From a virus (lineage: Duplodnaviria > Caudoviricetes), in the IMG/VR virus record IMGVR_UViG_3300024038_000010, positions 1 to 38,654 of that record: DNA of 38,654 nt; one strand, 5' to 3'. Shown here one piece after another: positions 95 through 13,782 of the stretch. The notes beneath the pieces are model-generated. The model ran no database searches and had not been told where the DNA came from. It saw only the letters and a program-made list of their open reading frames with translations. A program made the translations under genes and the position numbers. Position 1 is the first letter of the stretch; the number at the start of each line of letters is the position of its first letter.

Positions 95-651
95 TCCGCA
101 CCCCCTTTGCCCTGCTGGGCGGCAATGACGGCGTCGATTGCGTCGTTCCAGCCTTCGGTGTAGCCCTCCTGATACGATTCGTTGCTGGGGTATTCGTCGC
201 CAGCACCTTCAAACGGAGGCATCTTGTCGGGCAGCGCGATCGGCCGCGCATCGCCAGCAGCGGGAGCGGGGCGGCGCCCGTCGGGGAGGTAGCGCAGTTC
301 CTGCTCATGGCCTTTCACGCCGCACACCACATGGCCCCAGCTCGACCACTGGCCGCCGGGCAGCCGATAGCGGGCCTGGTACGCGCCGTCGTCGTCCTGG
401 TGCGTGCGGTCGATGTCGCGCAGCACGTGCTGGATCAGGGCGTTGACTGCCATGGGGCTACCAAATTCGGTATAGCCCTGCGCATTCGTGCGGCCGCCGA
501 CGTGAGCGATACGCTCGCCCAGGGTCATGCCGTGAGTCGCGCTGCGCTCGTCCTGCTCCACCGTGGATACGGGGGATGCAACCAGTTCTATCGGCTCCAG
601 CGCCCCGGGCGCATCTTGGGAAAGGCCGTGCTTGATTTCGAATTCGGTCAT
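88..651 (-). CDS. Hypothetical phage early protein (187 aa)
   Basis: GAGGTG RBS upstream, co-oriented and tightly packed in the left operon; no family recognised. Confidence 0.75.
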   Translation of the reverse strand: MTEFEIKHGLSQDAPGALEPIELVASPVSTVEQDERSATHGMTLGERIAHVGGRTNAQGYTEFGSPMAVNALIQHVLRDIDRTHQDDDGAYQARYRLPGGQWSSWGHVVCGVKGHEQELRYLPDGRRPAPAAGDARPIALPDKMPPFEGAGDEYPSNESYQEGYTEGWNDAIDAVIAAQQGKGGAEC

Positions 652-655
652 GTCG

Positions 656-799
656 TCACCTCAGAAATTGGTTGAACGCCATGCTCGCGATGGCGCAGAG
701 AATCAGCAGCCCAGAGATAGCTCCGACAATCCCGTATCCCAGGAGTCGGTCCGACGATTCGTCGTCTAGGTCGGTGGGCATGTGCTTATCCGTATCCAT
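656..799 (-). CDS. Small single-TM membrane protein (47 aa)
   Basis: ATG at 799 preceded by AGGAGA; MDTDKHMPTDLDDESSDRLLGYGIVGAISGLLILCAIASMAFNQFLR has an acidic N-terminus and one hydrophobic helix. Confidence 0.65.
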   Translation of the reverse strand: MDTDKHMPTDLDDESSDRLLGYGIVGAISGLLILCAIASMAFNQFLR

Positions 800-878
800 T
801 TGGAATCTCCTGGGCAATAGAAGGGCTGCCCCGCCAGCTTTGCGGGGATACAGGTGGGTGATGCTGGGGGGCAGGCGG

Positions 879-1373
879 CTAGATATGCGCCCAGAGCTCG
901 CGATGGACGATGCGCCAGACGGTATCGCCGGAGACGCCGTACTTCCTTCCAAGGGCTGCTGCGCTTCGCCCAGGCGTGCGCTTGGCGTGCATAGCGCGAA
1001 TTTCGAGGACCTCAGCTTCAGTCAGTTTGCTGCGCGGATGATTCGACCCAACAGGCGCGGTGCCGTGACTGCGCTTATCGAATTCGTTCTCCGAGGCAGT
1101 CGATATGCGCAGGTTGGATGCCGCGTTGTCGGTTTTATTGCCGTTGATGTGGCATACGACCAGGCCATCCGGAATATCGCCAAGATGGGCCAGGGCAACA
1201 AGCCGGTGCACAAGGCGCCCGACACGCCGTCCGTCGTCCTGTGCCACCTTGACCTTCAGATAACCCTTGCGGTCTGGGAATGTTGAAACCAGCCGCTTTT
1301 CGCTGCGCACCAGGCCTGTGTTGCTGGCTGAGTACCGAGGGAACCCAGGTATAGGCTTCCATACAACGTCCAT
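879..1373 (-). CDS. HNH homing endonuclease (NUMOD4-like N-terminus, HNH, C-terminal HTH)
   Basis: WKPIPGFPRYSASNTGLVRS (NUMOD4-like), VHRLVA...VCHINGNKTDNAASNL (HNH), KLTEAEVLEIR (HTH-like). AGGAGG RBS before ATG 1373. Confidence 0.9.
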   Translation of the reverse strand: MDVVWKPIPGFPRYSASNTGLVRSEKRLVSTFPDRKGYLKVKVAQDDGRRVGRLVHRLVALAHLGDIPDGLVVCHINGNKTDNAASNLRISTASENEFDKRSHGTAPVGSNHPRSKLTEAEVLEIRAMHAKRTPGRSAAALGRKYGVSGDTVWRIVHRELWAHI

Positions 1374-1413
1374 GAAAATCCTCCTAGGCCCAGTGTGCAG
1401 GGCCATGGCATCG

Positions 1414-1428
1414 GCGGGCTACGCCCGC
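1414..1428 (-). promoter_or_regulatory. GC hairpin with GNA loop downstream of VR-like repeat 1 (putative DGR target-recognition hairpin)
   Basis: GCGGGC-GTA-GCCCGC on minus strand, 28 nt after the shared 99-bp core; no U-tract follows. Confidence 0.7.
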
Positions 1429-1434
1429 AAAGGG

Positions 1435-1848
1435 TTAAAGGGATGAAGCGATGATGCTGCGGACGGGACGAACCCGGAACTCGTCGTCGCGGAGCCAGAC
1501 GTCGACGCCGCCGTCCTCGAAATTCACCGCCCAGGCGCTGAGGGAGCCGTAGGGCTTGTTCGTCCAGTACCAGTCGTCCTTATCGAACAGGTCCGGCACG
1601 TTGATGTAGGCCAGCATCATGTCTTTCTGGTCAGGGGCGTGCCAATCGCCATGGCCGTTGACCTCACCGCGTCCGGCCACGGCCGAATCGAGGTCCTTGA
1701 ATTCGACGTCTACCAGGTCGAATTCAGAGCCGCCGGGAATGATGATGTGATGGGTCACGCCGTCGATGAGGCGCGACCCGATGAAGACGCCGCCCTGCTC
1801 GGGCCATTCCTGCCCGATGGAGGGGGTGCTGGTTGCGGTTGCGGTCAT
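1435..1848 (-). CDS. DUF1566/Lcl-type C-type-lectin-fold protein 1 (putative DGR target)
   Basis: QGGVFIG, GHGDWHAP, YWT...AWAVNFEDG...FRVRPVR motifs; AGGAGA RBS. Confidence 0.85.
   Translation of the reverse strand: MTATATSTPSIGQEWPEQGGVFIGSRLIDGVTHHIIIPGGSEFDLVDVEFKDLDSAVAGRGEVNGHGDWHAPDQKDMMLAYINVPDLFDKDDWYWTNKPYGSLSAWAVNFEDGGVDVWLRDDEFRVRPVRSIIASSL
1457..1555 (-). repeat. VR-like repeat copy 1 (99 bp)
   Basis: Aligns without gaps to 1904-2002 and 6567-6665; differences only at codon positions 1-2. Confidence 0.9.
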
Positions 1849-1859
1849 GCAAGTCTCCT

Positions 1860-1874
1860 GCGGGCTGCGCCCGC
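1860..1874 (-). promoter_or_regulatory. GC hairpin with GNA loop downstream of VR-like repeat 2
   Basis: GCGGGC-GCA-GCCCGC on minus strand, 29 nt after the core. Confidence 0.7.
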
Positions 1875-1890
1875 TTAAGGGGTAAATGGA

Positions 1891-2463
1891 TCAATAGGTG
1901 AATCTGCGGACGGGACGAACCCGGAACTCGTTGAGGCGGGTCCAGTTGGAGACGCCGCCGCCCTCGAAACGCACCGCCCAGGCGTAGAAGGAGCCGTAGG
2001 GCGTCGAGGTCCAATAGACCTCCTTCTTGAACAGGTGGAGCAGATTTGCCGCGATGATCTGCAGTTCCCGCTTGGAAGGCAGATAAAAGTCGGCGTGGCC
2101 GTCTGCGCTATAGGCCTTGGCGGCACGCGCTGCCGGGTGGCTGCCGGACCGGCCGAGCAGGGTATTGGTGTTCACCAGGCCATCCCAGCTACTTGCTTGA
2201 ATCTCGCCTTCGTCCGGGCTCCACAAATACTTGCCCTGCAGGTCATCCTCGGCCACGACCAGTCCGTAGACAGTGCCGTCGTCGCCTAGGATGTCGCCAG
2301 CGTAGATACCGCCTTGGCCGGGCAGCGAAGCGCCGATCAACGCGGGGCGGGACAGTCGGGAGGGTGTGGAACTCAGGCGCTCGAGGAGCGCGTCAAGCGC
2401 GATGCGTGCAGGAACCTCCAGGCGCGAACCGCCGCCCAGATCCAACTGGATCGTGTCGTTCAT
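1891..2463 (-). CDS. DUF1566/Lcl-type C-type-lectin-fold protein 2 (putative DGR target)
   Basis: QGGIYAG, DGHADFYLPSKREL, YWTSTPY...AWAVRFEGG...FRVRPVRRF. Confidence 0.9.
   Translation of the reverse strand: MNDTIQLDLGGGSRLEVPARIALDALLERLSSTPSRLSRPALIGASLPGQGGIYAGDILGDDGTVYGLVVAEDDLQGKYLWSPDEGEIQASSWDGLVNTNTLLGRSGSHPAARAAKAYSADGHADFYLPSKRELQIIAANLLHLFKKEVYWTSTPYGSFYAWAVRFEGGGVSNWTRLNEFRVRPVRRFTY
1904..2002 (-). repeat. VR-like repeat copy 2 (99 bp)
   Basis: See copy 1; identity with copy 3 extends a further 11 bp (to 2013 and 6676). Confidence 0.9.
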
Positions 2464-2511
2464 GGTTTTCCTTGGGAGTTTGCCGCGGATGCGGCGGTGG
2501 AACTTACCGTG

Positions 2512-2550: not shown

Positions 2551-3018
2551 TCAATCAAAAGGGATGTCGTCGTCCATGTCCGCGAGATTGGCGGCAGGGG
2601 TAGATTGCTGCTGGGCTGCCCGTTGTTGAGGGGCCGGGCGTTGCGCTGGAGCAGTGCGCTGCTGGCGCGGCGCGTCGTCGTGGCCACCGCTCTCTTCGCG
2701 GCCGCCCAGCATCTGCATCTGGTCAGCGACGATTTCGGTGCTGTAGCGGTCAGCACCGGTGTCCTTATCGGACCATTTCCGTGTCGTCATCCGGCCGGAA
2801 ACGAAGATCTGCTTGCCCTTGGTCAGGTACTCGCCGCAGATCTCACCCAACTTCCCGAAGGCAACGACGCGGACCCATTCCACGCCCTCCTTCTCCTTGG
2901 TTTTCCAGCCCACAGCCAAGGAAAAGTTGCAGACTGCTGCACCATCTGGCGAATACCGCACGTCGGGGTCTTTGCCAAGTCTGCCAATGAATTCGCAGCG
3001 GTTAAGGTCATTGCTCAT
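2551..3018 (-). CDS. ssb: Single-stranded DNA-binding protein
   Basis: LNRCEFIGRLGKDPDVRY OB-fold start, YSTEIVADQMQML, acidic tail DDDIPFD. Confidence 0.97.
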   Translation of the reverse strand: MSNDLNRCEFIGRLGKDPDVRYSPDGAAVCNFSLAVGWKTKEKEGVEWVRVVAFGKLGEICGEYLTKGKQIFVSGRMTTRKWSDKDTGADRYSTEIVADQMQMLGGREESGGHDDAPRQQRTAPAQRPAPQQRAAQQQSTPAANLADMDDDIPFD

Positions 3019-3470
3019 ACGTATTTCCAGTTCTTCCGTTTGATGATGGCGCTCATGGTCTGCTGAGGCACCCCGAAGGCTTCTGCCAAGTCCTTTTGCC
3101 GCACAGCTAGATCATTGAGCCGTCGTATAGCTCGCACTTCGCGCTCCGTCATGCGGGTGTGGCCTTGGCGCTCACCGCGTGGCGAGCGGCCTTTGCTGAC
3201 CATGTCCAGCGAGTTCTCTTTGGCGGTACCAGCAAAGAGGTGCCTGGGGTTGCAGCAGGGCGGGTTGTCGCACGAGTGGCAAATCAACAGACCTGGCGGA
3301 ATGTCCCCGCGGCTTAGGATGAATGCCACTCGGTGTGCGATCTTGGTAAGTCCGGGCGGAGAGCGGAACTCTCCATACCCCTTTGGGTGCCTTGCGCCCT
3401 TCCAAAGCCAACACTCATCCGGCCCCGCCCGGGCTACCTTCGACCAGAATCTTTCTGCCCAATCCGCCAT
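3015..3470 (-). CDS. HNH homing endonuclease (Zn-binding) with C-terminal HTH
   Basis: RFWSKV...ECWLWKG...AHRVA...ICHSCDNPPCCNPRHL; overlaps both neighbours. Confidence 0.9.
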   Translation of the reverse strand: MADWAERFWSKVARAGPDECWLWKGARHPKGYGEFRSPPGLTKIAHRVAFILSRGDIPPGLLICHSCDNPPCCNPRHLFAGTAKENSLDMVSKGRSPRGERQGHTRMTEREVRAIRRLNDLAVRQKDLAEAFGVPQQTMSAIIKRKNWKYV

Positions 3471-4105
3471 TACGCCGCCTCCTTCTTGAGCAGGTTTTCG
3501 TACTTGCTGACCATGCGTTCAAACGCCATCAGATCGCCCTCCAGTTCTTCGATGGCATCATCATCGCGCTCGATCCGGATGATCGTGAGATGCCGGCCGA
3601 TAGGTTCCAGGTCGGGCGCCCACAAAACGAGGTCTACCCATTTGCGCCCTAGCAACCACATTGCGCCGTTGCATTGGTCGGTGTACGCGCTGATATCGCC
3701 ATCGACTACGGCCGTGAACAGAGTGTCGGACGAAACCATCGTTTTGATTTCGATGATTCCGTCGTCGTCGACGAGGCCGTCCACGCTCACGCCAAACAGG
3801 CCGTCGCCCGTGGTAATGAATCCCGCCTCATCGACAAAGTTGCCCGTCTTCGCTTCGTAGGCAGCCCGCGCAAAAGGCTCCTGCTCCGTGCCGGTACGCA
3901 TAGCTGCGTTCGCGAAGACTTCCGGTGCCCGGCCGCCGACACGTTCGCGCGCAACATCCATCGCGTACTTGAGGCAGTCTTTCGACGGCCCCCCGGCTTT
4001 CAGCCTGGACCGTGCGTCCTTGAAACGGCTGCCGGTTATGACGCCGCGGCGGGAGTCCAGCCATTCCTGAGACCCTTGCGGGGCGGTGTGGATGATCGGG
4101 TCCAT
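3470..4105 (-). CDS. YqaJ/lambda-exonuclease family recombination nuclease
   Basis: QGSQEWLDSRRGVITGS, GTEQEPFARAAYE, SVDGLV...IIEIKT, QCNGAMW motifs. Confidence 0.93.
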   Translation of the reverse strand: MDPIIHTAPQGSQEWLDSRRGVITGSRFKDARSRLKAGGPSKDCLKYAMDVARERVGGRAPEVFANAAMRTGTEQEPFARAAYEAKTGNFVDEAGFITTGDGLFGVSVDGLVDDDGIIEIKTMVSSDTLFTAVVDGDISAYTDQCNGAMWLLGRKWVDLVLWAPDLEPIGRHLTIIRIERDDDAIEELEGDLMAFERMVSKYENLLKKEAA

Positions 4106-4884
4106 TACTTGGCCTCCTGCTTGAGCATGTTGCGTTTGTCGCCATAGGCCTGCTTGAAAGCTGCAAAGGCCGCGAGGTTATTGGTCTGTTCGATTGCTTT
4201 GCAGCCCGCCTGCCAGATGTCAGCAGCCGCTTCCAGAGTTTCGGCCTGCGCAAGCTTGCTGATCCATTCGTCCCGCAGCTCGAAAGCTGCGTCATCAGCG
4301 CCGGCGCCGTCGTTGTCGTCGCCCTTTTCGGAGATGCCGCAGACCGCCTTCAGCGTGTGGCGCTCAAGGTAAGTGGTCGTCGACGCGATCGCCTGGATCG
4401 TGTTCTTCTTCCCGCTTTCGTCTGGCGGCGCGCTCAAAGTGACGGACTTCTCGTGGCCCAAGCGGTGCACCAACGTGCAGGTGACGTGGATCCGGCCATC
4501 TTTCTGTTCGACGTCCCAGCCCCAGGCGAAGCCGTGCTTGGACAGGGCAGGGCCCACGGCCGTGACCACATCGGACAGCTCGGCGTGCTTGTAGCTGGTG
4601 GTGCCGCGGTCGGTCTTGAATTCGACCTGCTTGCGCTTGATGATCTCCACCGCCTCGGACTTGAAGGCGGCGAAGGCGTCGTTGAATGCCTTGCGCGCCT
4701 CGCCTGCTTCCCACTCGCGCTGGATCGCCATCATTTCCTTGATCTGATCCAGGGGGATGCCCTGTTGAACTGCGGCCATCATCATGCCCATGGGCGAATT
4801 GGCGGCGAGAACGGCCACTTGGCCGGCGGCCGGCTCGGGTTGCATGGCCACTGTGCGGGCCGGGGCGTCGATAACTTCGGTCAT
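4105..4884 (-). CDS. erf: ERF-family single-strand annealing protein
   Basis: YKHAELSDV...LSKHG...VTCTLVHRLGH...IQAIASTTTYLERHTLKAVCGI...DDNDG pattern, next to the exonuclease. Confidence 0.9.
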   Translation of the reverse strand: MTEVIDAPARTVAMQPEPAAGQVAVLAANSPMGMMMAAVQQGIPLDQIKEMMAIQREWEAGEARKAFNDAFAAFKSEAVEIIKRKQVEFKTDRGTTSYKHAELSDVVTAVGPALSKHGFAWGWDVEQKDGRIHVTCTLVHRLGHEKSVTLSAPPDESGKKNTIQAIASTTTYLERHTLKAVCGISEKGDDNDGAGADDAAFELRDEWISKLAQAETLEAAADIWQAGCKAIEQTNNLAAFAAFKQAYGDKRNMLKQEAK

Positions 4885-6521: not shown

Positions 6522-6538
6522 GCCAGCCTGCGGCTGGC
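6522..6538 (-). promoter_or_regulatory. GC hairpin with GNA loop downstream of VR-like repeat 3
   Basis: GCCAGCC-GCA-GGCTGGC on minus strand, 28 nt after the core; stem sequence differs from copies 1 and 2 but structure, loop type and position are kept. Confidence 0.7.
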
Positions 6539-6553
6539 AAAGGGTTGAATTGA

Positions 6554-7006
6554 TTAAGGGATAAATCTGCGGACGGGACGAACCCGGAACTCGTGGCCGC
6601 GGGTCCAGCGGAAGACGCTGCCGTCCTCGAAACCCACCGCCCAGGCGTTGCCGGAGCCGTAGGGCGTCGAGGTCCACACATCGCCAACGTCTTCGCTGAA
6701 CCCTTCGGCTGCCAACAGCAGCAGCGCTTCGCGATGGGAGGGCAGGTAGAAATCGGTGTGGCCGTCGGCGGAGTATTCGGACGCGGCCAGGGCGGCAGGA
6801 TGGCCACCGCGCTCGAGCAGCTTGCGGGTGTTCTCGGCACCGTCCAGGTCGGAATAGCCTTCCAGCTCATCGCCGTAGCCGCCAAATTCGAACTCGCCGT
6901 CCAGCAGCTCTGCCGCGGCGAACAGGTGACGCCCCTGCGCGGTCTTGCCGATGTAGATCCCGCCCTGGCCCTCGGCGTACTGGCCAACTATGAATGCATT
7001 GCTCAT
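6554..7006 (-). CDS. DUF1566/Lcl-type C-type-lectin-fold protein 3 (putative remote DGR target)
   Basis: QGGIYIG, DGHTDFYLPSHREA, WTSTPY...AWAVGFEDG...FRVRPVRRF. Confidence 0.9.
   Translation of the reverse strand: MSNAFIVGQYAEGQGGIYIGKTAQGRHLFAAAELLDGEFEFGGYGDELEGYSDLDGAENTRKLLERGGHPAALAASEYSADGHTDFYLPSHREALLLLAAEGFSEDVGDVWTSTPYGSGNAWAVGFEDGSVFRWTRGHEFRVRPVRRFIP
6567..6665 (-). repeat. VR-like repeat copy 3 (99 bp)
   Basis: See copy 1; about 4.6 kb from the other two copies. Confidence 0.9.
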
Positions 7007-7842: not shown

Positions 7843-7958
7843 GTGCTCGCCTTCCCCCATCCGACTTCGTGGCGGTACGTCTCCCTCTTGAGGCGATGCC
7901 CTGACTGCTGGCTGAGGGTCCGTGGGGGTCTTGCTGCGCTGTTTGATAGCGTGAAGTC

Positions 7959-8001
7959 ACTTTAGCTAAAGCGAAAGTTAAAGTCAAGCAAATGCGAAAG
8001 C
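7959..8001 (-). promoter_or_regulatory. pL promoter with two OL operators
   Basis: TTGACT (7987-7982)-17 bp-TAAAGT (7964-7959); 20-bp operators at 7959-7978 (ACTTTAGC-TAAA-GCGAAAGT) and 7982-8001 match the OR motif. Confidence 0.85.
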
Positions 8002-8642: not shown

Positions 8643-9395
8643 TTACTGTATCTGCGACGCGATCAACGTGCTGAAATCCAACGGGTTGAAGCTTACGGTC
8701 TTCCCCGTGTAGTAGTTCGCGCGTTCGAATTGTTTGGTCCCTACGGCGCGTTGGCTTTCAACTGCGGCGAGGACAAAGCCCGGCATGTTTTCTTGCTGAT
8801 AGCGCATGTGGATTAGCTCGGCCTCCAAAAGACGCTGTATCCCGCTCGCTGCGATTACGATCAAAGGTGTAGGGCTGTAGATCACATGGTCCGCCTTAAA
8901 CTCACCGGCGATAGGCAACTCGACATCAGTGCCATATTTGAACCCAACTTTTTGGGCGGCAGCCTCTACCGCTTGTGCCACTTTGATCTTGAAGTCGCTT
9001 TCCTTCCGCGGCTGCCGCGCCGTAGCTAAGGCGTACAAATTCTGTGCGGCCTCCGCAACTCGAAAGATATAAGCTGGGATCAAGCGCTCATCGGGTGCGT
9101 GCGCTCGGAGGATTTCGTTTTCGTCCGCTGACACAGGCGAGTGATCTGGCAGCTCTGCGAGCCAACGCTGGACAGATTCAAGTTCGACGTCGCCGTCTGC
9201 CATGTTCGCGTACAGCGCTGACTCGCCATTCTCATCGATGCTGAAGCCATGCTCTTCCGGCCGCACTCGCACGACAATACGGTCTCCGCTGCCTGAATAT
9301 TCTAGAGGCGTGACTATGCGCTGCACCCCGTTTTCATCGGAGTGCACTTCAAACAATGCGCAGATAGCCTGCTTGATTGTGCGGGTCAATTCCAT
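8643..9395 (-). CDS. DUF1828-like protein with possible C-terminal PD-(D/E)XK-like domain
   Basis: IVTPLEYSGSGDRIVVRV...FSIDENG resembles the DUF1828 N-terminal pattern (recognised by eye, no HMM run). Confidence 0.65.
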   Translation of the reverse strand: MELTRTIKQAICALFEVHSDENGVQRIVTPLEYSGSGDRIVVRVRPEEHGFSIDENGESALYANMADGDVELESVQRWLAELPDHSPVSADENEILRAHAPDERLIPAYIFRVAEAAQNLYALATARQPRKESDFKIKVAQAVEAAAQKVGFKYGTDVELPIAGEFKADHVIYSPTPLIVIAASGIQRLLEAELIHMRYQQENMPGFVLAAVESQRAVGTKQFERANYYTGKTVSFNPLDFSTLIASQIQ

Positions 9396-11147: not shown

Positions 11148-11205
11148 ACTTTAGCATCAGCTAATTTCGCATAGGCTTGAATTTAACTTTCGCAAGTGCT
11201 AAAGT
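11148..11205. promoter_or_regulatory. OR operators with pR (and pRM-like promoter)
   Basis: Three 20-bp imperfect palindromes ACTTTMGC-N4-GCKAAAGT at 11148-11167, 11163-11182 and 11186-11205. pR = TTGAAT (11177)-17 bp-TAAAGT (11200). Leftward TAAAGT at 11153-11148 with a poor -35. Confidence 0.85.
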
Positions 11206-11211
11206 GATGGC

Positions 11212-12862: not shown

Positions 12863-13782
12863 ACGCGATGCCGAAGTCTCCGCAGGTCGAGGACGGCCAC
12901 ATCAAGATCGCCAATGAGCTGTTCGAGGCGATCATGGCTTTTCCGTTCAAGCAGACCACGCTGCGTGTTCTGTTAGCGGTCCTGCGCAAGACGTATGGCT
13001 ACGGCAAGAAGGAAGACGACCTTTCTGCCTCTCAAATCGGAATGCTGCTGGGCGACATGAAACGCCAGCACATCACTACGGCGTTGAATGAATTGGCTGC
13101 CATGGGCGTTATCAGCAAGCGCCCGGGAAAGTACGGATCGTTAGTCGGAATAAACAAGGATTATTCGCGCTGGATCGCTAGTCCGAAATCCGGACAGGTG
13201 AACGAATCTCGGACTAGTCCGAATCTTGGACAGGTGAACGAAATCCGTGCATCTGCTAGTCCGAAATCCGGACAGGTGAACGAATCTCGGACTAGTCCGA
13301 ATCTTGGACAGGTGAACGAAATCCGTGCATCTGCTAGTCCGAAATCCGGACAGGTCGATAGTCCGAATCTCGGACACACAAAAGACAACCTTCCAAAAGA
13401 CAACCAACAAAATGAATCTGCTAACGCAGATTCCTGCGGCGAGCAAAGCGTCAAGCTCGCACTTGTCCCGACTCCGCCTCCCGTCATTGCTCTTCCGGTC
13501 AAAGACGGCTCCGAGTTCGAGATCACTGAAGACTTGGTGGCTGAGTGGAGTGCTGCCTATCCCGGAGTGGATGTACGCGGCGAGCTCGCAAAGGCTCGTG
13601 TCTGGCTGCGTGCTTCCCCTCAAAACCTGAAAACTCGCCGTGGCATGGGCAAATTCGTGGTGGGTTGGCTTAGCCGATCTGCCAAGCCCTCGTCAGGCTT
13701 TTCTTACGCGAGGAAATCAGCGCATGGAAACTTCAGCTTGCAGGACTACCACGCCGGAGTTGCAGCAGATGGCACTTTCTAG
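12859..13782 (+). CDS. Phage replication initiator (lambda O-like N-terminal domain)
   Basis: EDGHIKIANELFEAI...RKTYGYGKKED...SQI; internal iteron repeats; followed by a DnaC-like gene. Confidence 0.9.
   Translation: MNAMPKSPQVEDGHIKIANELFEAIMAFPFKQTTLRVLLAVLRKTYGYGKKEDDLSASQIGMLLGDMKRQHITTALNELAAMGVISKRPGKYGSLVGINKDYSRWIASPKSGQVNESRTSPNLGQVNEIRASASPKSGQVNESRTSPNLGQVNEIRASASPKSGQVDSPNLGHTKDNLPKDNQQNESANADSCGEQSVKLALVPTPPPVIALPVKDGSEFEITEDLVAEWSAAYPGVDVRGELAKARVWLRASPQNLKTRRGMGKFVVGWLSRSAKPSSGFSYARKSAHGNFSLQDYHAGVAADGTF
13177..13420 (+). repeat. Replication origin: iteron array with 78-bp tandem duplication and A-rich flank
   Basis: 78-bp unit starts at 13177, 13255 and (partial) 13333. It is built from ~18-bp imperfect palindromes TAGTCCGAA(ATC/TCT)YGGACA and followed by the A-rich stretch CAAAAGACAACC x2. 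Confidence 0.85.

Follow-up and report, generated by a model that had tools for sequence, protein, structure and literature searches.

A free-standing HNH endonuclease gene in place of the avd-TR-RT core of a three-target phage DGR

Organisation of the locus

The window, by which we mean the whole stretch of 38,654 nucleotides analysed here, is a linear phage fragment with a CheckV completeness of 77%. It carries three small DGR target genes, each with a variable repeat (VR), and a set of recombination genes:

2551..3018, minus strand: SSB (Pfam PF00436); the target-DGR cassette comes next
3470..4105, minus strand: YqaJ-type exonuclease (Pfam PF09588, E 1.7e-17), a context gene
4105..4884, minus strand: ERF single-strand annealing protein (Pfam PF04404, E 2.7e-15), candidate recombinase for allele exchange
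1435..1848, minus strand: target gene T1, 137 aa, Lcl_C/DUF1566 (Pfam PF07603, E 1.7e-7)
1458..1555, minus strand: VR1, 13 differences from the L001 template, all at adenines
1414..1428, minus strand: hairpin after T1, 6-bp stem, GTA loop (from the fold; same in DGR-positive sisters)
1891..2463, minus strand: target gene T2, 190 aa, Lcl_C/DUF1566 (Pfam PF07603, E 2.4e-8)
1905..2002, minus strand: VR2, 14 differences from the L001 template, all at adenines
1860..1874, minus strand: hairpin after T2, 6-bp stem, GCA loop (from sequence and fold)
6554..7006, minus strand: distal target gene T3, 150 aa, C-terminal Lcl_C/DUF1566 (Pfam PF07603, E 6.6e-7; relatives at 74-95%)
6568..6665, minus strand: VR3, 14 differences from the L001 template, all at adenines
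6522..6538, minus strand: hairpin after T3, 7-8 bp stem, GCA loop (from sequence and fold)

The PF07603 scores of all three targets are just below the curated cut-off. Compared with the template (TR) of the DGR-positive sister phage L001, the three VRs differ at 41 positions, all 41 of them adenines and none a non-adenine (24 of the 98 positions are adenines), and so the repeats are true DGR variable repeats whose engine has gone. All three are followed by a hairpin with a stem of 6-8 bp and a GNA loop, the folding z-scores being modest (-1.0 to -1.7 over stretches of 61-63 nt).

The slot after T1, where the engine would be expected, is made up as follows:

1391..1406, minus strand: avd stub, the first 16 nt of avd (16, not 14), identical to the intact avd of L003 and L029
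1374..1390, minus strand: spacer carrying the ribosome-binding site (AGGAGG) of the HNH gene and ending in 7-8 nt that resemble avd codons 8-10
879..1373, minus strand: predicted NUMOD4-HNH-HTH endonuclease, 164 aa, replacing about 1.72 kb of avd-TR-RT (Pfam, phrog_59)
829..847, minus strand: GC-rich inverted repeat after the HNH gene, read in the sequence; the lowest-energy fold did not recover it
811..830, minus strand: conserved boundary motif of about 20 nt, at which DGR, HNH and empty alleles rejoin
656..799, minus strand: small downstream gene that DGR-positive relatives also have (87% to L030 across 45 compared residues)

Along the minus strand the stop codon of T1 (1435) is followed by the hairpin (1428-1414), 7 nt and an ATG at 1406 that reads MALHT; then come AGGAGG (1385-1380) and the ATG of the HNH gene (1373), whose stop codon is at 881-879. 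This is the order that the first-pass annotation had read from the letters, and Pfam agrees with its naming of a NUMOD4-HNH gene. The HNH reading frame is that of the avd ATG, giving an ORF of 175 aa (879-1406).

No DGR engine was found in the window. The Avd and RT of a sister gave no match as tblastn queries, the RT search of the window's own record returned 0 candidates (the positive control, L001, gave E 1e-257), and a scan with the 98-nt repeat core found three copies, none with the template 3' end. Adenine-only VRs and hairpins are thus present in this 77% complete record and template, RT and avd are absent, save for the 16 nt of the avd stub; the claim that the DGR machinery is missing and that an HNH gene stands in its place stood up. 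The sequence places the window outside the class of complete DGRs but as a direct derivative of one.

This early region is rich in HNH genes. A second HNH-HTH gene lies at 3015-3470 (minus strand) between the exonuclease and SSB genes and is absent there in relatives including L004, L006 and L010, and L006 has another of its own. Elsewhere in the window, five to six repeats of 36-42 nt within an O-type replication gene (13177-13395) are likely to be origin iterons, and a 43-nt inverted pair (84%) on either side of the repressor region (7957-7999 and 11165-11207) likely represents the left and right operators.

The slot in related phages

Searches with T1 gave 14 viral, 2 genome and 10 metagenome loci; without the window's own record, 25 non-self loci are left. 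At 19 of these (16 distinct records once three duplicates are removed) the shared sequence runs through the MALHT codons and the same ATG opens an avd-TR-RT cassette, consisting of a 128-aa Avd, then the template, then a 366-aa RT. This is what had been predicted of relatives, and the contrary case, that they never have avd or RT at this position, did not hold. In L001 avd, TR and RT follow the target in that order, with matches to bAvd (E 3e-11) and RVT_1 (E 4e-16); its Avd and RT belong to phrog_3206 and phrog_1423, PHROG using the label 'Avd protein of DGR', while NCBIfam DivGenRetAVD scores 50.5 bits, under its cut-off of 80. The suggestion that proteins with this MALHT start are Avd-like held. 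The templates of the 16 phages are nearly identical. The comparison with these relatives shows that a free-standing gene for a predicted NUMOD4-HNH nuclease replaced the avd-TR-RT of a three-target phage DGR.

Of the other six loci, L006 has the window's HNH allele and L038 a different gene, L012 and L039 stop short of the slot or are uninformative, and L013 and L014 are distant, the former with a distant avd and RT and the latter with nothing. An HNH-filled slot is thus the minority state (2 of the 21 informative non-self loci). L015, a supposed DGR-less prophage, was dropped, its record stopping within SSB, before the slot; L017, L020, L021 and L012 are fragments.

Both named genomes that carry the cassette are Achromobacter, which is also named for close nuclease variants in an identical-sequence look-up. 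An intact DGR with this layout but more distant, its RT 66% identical, is present in another Achromobacter genome (L153, on G068:C98). No DNA match to window positions 600-2500 was found in the cultured-phage collection, where the HNH proteins are distant (below 60% identity; 553 records).

Several relatives have rearranged repeats. The L011 template (8972-9069) has lost several of its adenines and matches VR2 in its 3' half, which looks like the copying of a VR back into the template; the T1 repeat of the same phage is also heavily discordant. A one-base insertion in the VR of the T3 homologue of L001 (3541-4000) causes a frameshift, and a fourth target comes after it. In L012 (5272-6020) a T1 gene with a T2-type tail precedes another T1 copy, a tandem duplication that probably arose via recombination between repeats.

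The junctions

The exchange replaced about 1,724 nt of avd-TR-RT with 560 nt. On the left, the window does not differ from L003 over the 66 nt up to the junction. The avd-like stretch of 7-8 nt before the HNH start suggests a crossover guided by imperfect similarity. On the right, the DGR and HNH alleles rejoin at 811-830, within the interval (near 800-870) that had been predicted. A scan of the collection for the boundary motif found 14 loci with varied genes directly before it, SSB itself in four; the motif comes directly after SSB in the DGR-less relatives L016, L159, L160, L164 and L165. A GC-rich element similar to the inverted repeat after the HNH gene precedes the motif in DGR-less relatives and is absent after the RT in DGR-positive ones, so the right end of the HNH allele is likely to derive from a DGR-less phage. 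No DGR-less donor with the window's HNH before the motif was among the 14 loci.

The nuclease

Pfam recognises NUMOD4 (E 7e-7) and HNH_3 (E 1.9e-16) in the 164-aa protein. Its sole match in the PDB is 1u3e (E 5e-10; residues 4-118, the NUMOD4 and HNH core), an entry titled 'HNH homing endonuclease' that we take to be I-HmuI of phage SPO1. In an alignment of 11 sequences His75, Asn87 and Asn96 are invariant and Asn83 is nearly so; by analogy, His75 and Asn96 are presumably catalytic. The HNH core and DNA-binding domains are therefore kept together with the putative catalytic residues. The 11 close variants fall in two protein clusters and are all full length, one being annotated from the avd ATG, and the next relatives are only 44-46% identical. 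The window's HNH, used as a query against 62 Achromobacter genomes, was not found at E 1e-15. An in-frame MALHT-HNH fusion as the functional product was considered and rejected: the allele from run X4 (see below) lacks one spacer base and is out of frame, and so the fusion is not required.

One allele in several backgrounds

The HNH allele is present in at least three backgrounds. Besides the window it is found, with the same junction, in L006, a provirus rated 100% complete and without an RT, and in an independent run (X4), where one contig spans window positions 649-1473 with 32 differences and 4 gaps and departs from the L001 sequence at the same avd base. An allele swap at one locus, as originally proposed, is therefore supported. 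The nuclease genes of the window and L006 differ at 45 of 495 bases, with dS 0.35, dN 0.025 and dN/dS 0.07; judged by these substitutions the gene is old and conserved under purifying selection.

The flanks of the carriers are not each other's nearest, each carrier having instead a near-identical DGR-positive sister. Across the seven segments of the T2-T1 region, the window is nearest to DGR-positive L001 in six (0/215, 17/242, 0/56, 1/100, 12/100 and 3/92 differences) and L006 to DGR-positive L009 in five (9/215, 2/242, 2/56, 2/100 and 0/100), L006 leaving the L009 type about 45 nt before VR1. An old nuclease with such sisters suggests that the allele is likely to invade DGR-positive phages repeatedly.

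The non-adenine positions of a template leave a fingerprint in the VRs. In the 16 DGR-positive records a phage's own template fits 37 of the 43 VRs and 6 are discordant. VR2 and VR3 of L006 fit only the L009-type template among the 16, and its VR1 fits the window's type; the L006 fingerprint consists of one strict site and one supporting site, the latter unchanged in 13/13 VRs of the five phages with that template base. VR1 of L006 appears to have been imported together with the nuclease, in a tract that covers VR1 and about 45 nt upstream and resembles co-conversion, a trace that plain recombination would also leave. The six VRs of the two carriers show 0 non-adenine differences from some known template, whereas freezing since the split of the HNH genes should have left about 3.5 in each; the DGR was thus probably lost only recently in either lineage. 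Read most simply, the allele arrived in both backgrounds not long ago and took the place of a functioning DGR, and the three repeats of L006 have not been harmonised since.

Other gutted DGRs and orphan targets

The second filled slot, that of L038, contains a 146-aa HNH gene of phrog_3377 after the same avd base as in the window. The two nucleases share just a weak local match (26%), and the L038 avd stub has different synonymous bases, which match the intact avd of L010. Among the matches listed, the best 80 relatives of the L038 HNH include six in gutted DGRs, the top three among them; the breakpoints vary, the template and most of the RT are lost and four keep a C-terminal stub of the RT. 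A search of five of the six records found stubs or nothing, two of the five being at least 90% complete. The avd profile used for these labels took in the avd of L073 itself, whose match is also supported by tblastn with the L001 Avd. On a quick, weakly supported tree, the gutted-DGR label clusters among these listed relatives (3 changes against 6.8 when shuffled, reached in 0 of 500 shuffles). None of eight phrog_3377 matches in 401 sampled Burkholderiaceae genomes had DGR parts. A general link between NUMOD4-HNH genes and DGRs was dropped, as 0 of 80 loci of more distant relatives (up to 41% identity) had such parts. L072 (2850-3100) and L089 (3700-3980) have a similar GC-rich non-coding stretch before the HNH gene of their gutted DGRs, which suggests that a larger cassette was inserted.

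Orphan targets also occur with no HNH in the slot, in L016, L018 and L024 (90-100% complete, no RT) and in G072 (L152), where one VR was found and a template or RT was not. Each has one or two fresh-looking VR genes, and the two repeats of L024 share a fingerprint absent from all 16 templates.

How the allele may spread

On balance we lean towards the HNH allele spreading into DGR-positive relatives by intronless homing, leaving the targets frozen at their last variant. The allele would have originated in a single crossover at short imperfect similarity between the 5' end of avd and the ribosome-binding region of the nuclease gene. Co-infection or double lysogeny would then allow the nuclease to nick the DGR-bearing genome, probably within avd-TR-RT or across the avd junction, because the carriers have no long common flank. 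Repair, probably by the phage's Erf/YqaJ pair, would be anchored at the left by the homology of T1, hairpin and avd stub and at the right by the boundary motif, and may sometimes co-convert VR1. As repeats and hairpins are intact, a returning DGR allele, or one acting in trans, should still be able to rewrite the targets, which would otherwise be fixed. The HNH gene is present or absent at one site in related genomes, with signs of movement between backgrounds, and homing fits the combination of a gene kept under purifying selection though of no evident benefit to the phage, its repeated recent entry and the co-conversion-like tract. Free-standing HNH genes of T4 are described as nicking DNA, being over-inherited and co-converting their flanks (PMC2988022).

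A second account, to which we give distinctly less credence, is that the HNH allele arose once and is shuffled at conserved boundaries by Erf-type recombination with the DGR allele uncut, loss of the DGR being neutral or favoured after good target variants have been found. The Erf and YqaJ genes adjoin, the flanks are a patchwork (the window and L001 differ at 17/242 and 12/100 in two segments of this mosaic region), and the boundary motif is used by many unrelated upstream genes at its 14 loci; with Erf and an exonuclease encoded in a mosaic region, allele swaps need no nuclease. Recombination between short diverged sequences is reported for an Erf and exonuclease pair (PMC3945230), orphan targets occur in DGR-less phages that have no HNH (L016, L018, L024 and G072), and Wu et al. 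discarded over half of their candidate DGRs as broken or incomplete (PMC5758913). Shuffling leaves unexplained the purifying selection on the nuclease (dN/dS 0.07), the joining of two unrelated HNH genes to avd at the same base and, among the matches listed, the clustering of phrog_3377 genes in gutted DGRs.

Rewriting in trans is compatible with either mode of spread but seems unlikely: a DGR-positive sister, co-resident or superinfecting, would continue to diversify the orphan targets, and the HNH phage would be a freeloader. As such rewriting would have it, the three VRs of the window match sister templates without a single non-adenine mismatch and have retained their hairpins; it would account equally well for fresh VRs, and templates as alike as those of the 16 phages would also suit it. 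The repeat and hairpin, both kept by the window's targets, suffice for targeting in BPP-1 (PMC3240598), and avd, TR and RT are reported to work in trans from a plasmid (PMC5758913; PMC3240598). Most variable codons of VR1 are different in the window and L006 despite its tight linkage to the HNH gene, but crossovers near the junction would explain this, and the two fingerprints among the three VRs of L006 argue against a single helper having rewritten all three. Moreover, the repeat was found in 5 of 62 Achromobacter genomes and a donor-plus-orphan pair in none, and G072 has one VR with neither template nor RT found. Contigs, which show presence and not absence, cover nearly all of avd-TR-RT in run X5, and runs X1 and X4 gave none over avd or the template (L001 8514-9192). 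A single X1 contig covers 500-1930, and the X4 contigs break in the repeats, as shared repeats alone could explain. Of the two fates first put forward for the targets, frozen or diversified in trans, the template fingerprints favour the former, recently frozen, short of proof.

That this is a normal dispersed DGR with its engine in the missing part of the genome, or a junction made chimeric by mis-assembly, is very improbable and largely refuted: the record is linear and 77% complete, and prophages with non-adjacent targets have been described (PMC5758913), but the slot is occupied, the avd stub marks the old position, the same junction recurs in the 100% complete, RT-less L006 (which also counters an intact TR-RT lying just outside the window) and in the X4 contig, and one contig spans 500-1930 in X1, the likely source run.

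DGR cores might be a recurrent homing target, a broader proposal that we make tentatively. Several HNH lineages would be specialised in cutting and replacing avd-TR-RT, populations would cycle between DGR-on, HNH-off and empty states at one slot, and orphans would be kept rewritable by a co-infecting or back-recombining DGR-positive sister. Selfish-element conflict would then set the population rate of targeted hypermutation. Of the on/off mechanism of the first-pass annotation, the off direction is the only one observed; 'switch' exceeds the evidence.

Comparison with known systems

No paper on HNH genes replacing DGR cores was found by title and opening of the abstract, subscription papers lying outside the reach of the search, and 'HNH' has 0 occurrences in the main texts of three DGR surveys (PMC5758913, PMC6642488 and the Roux et al. 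preprint). Because such surveys take the RT as their starting point and broken elements are discarded, orphan targets escape them, as do the agents that orphan these. Distal second VRs have been reported, in RT-bearing prophages (PMC12629997). This case adds a series of alleles at a single slot and sequence evidence that invasions have been recent and repeated. The slot provides a natural series (DGR, two different HNH genes and empty) in closely related phages, with matched donor and recipient sequences. Two questions thereby become directly testable: can a homing endonuclease target a retroelement and delete it, and does the DGR of one phage diversify the genes of another in trans?

The closest retroelements are the BPP-1-type phage DGRs, the small DUF1566/Lcl_C targets corresponding to category 'd', CLec2, of Wu et al. 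2018 (PMC5758913). As in these, the sisters have the order target-avd-TR-RT, adenine-only differences between VR and TR, a GC-rich hairpin after each VR and several targets, one non-adjacent. Unlike them, the window has no TR, no RT and all but 16 nt of avd missing, and its targets are small proteins encoded in the early recombination region and not tail fibres.

By analogy we infer that the window's nuclease is comparable to a free-standing homing endonuclease. Unlike the protein in 1u3e it is not encoded in an intron, it has Cys for Asp before the catalytic His and its C-terminal HTH is different. At one site SegH/Hef reportedly stand in place of mobC/mobE. As with MobA/MobE and Seg of T4, the window's NUMOD4-HNH-HTH gene is intergenic and polymorphic at one site among related phages, and as with the free-standing T4 HNHs there are possible signs of flank co-conversion and different nuclease genes can occupy a single site (PMC2988022). 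The I-HmuI-like HNHs of Skunavirus belong with these free-standing homing endonucleases (PMC12724721). The present case differs from both in that the nuclease-free allele is a 1.7-kb retroelement deleted by the swap, and in that homing is here proposed from sequence. In the adjoining Erf/exonuclease pair and the exchange of alleles at short conserved flanks it resembles the Rad52-like mosaicism of lambdoid phages (PMC3945230), which by itself predicts neither a conserved nuclease nor its recurrence at DGR cores.
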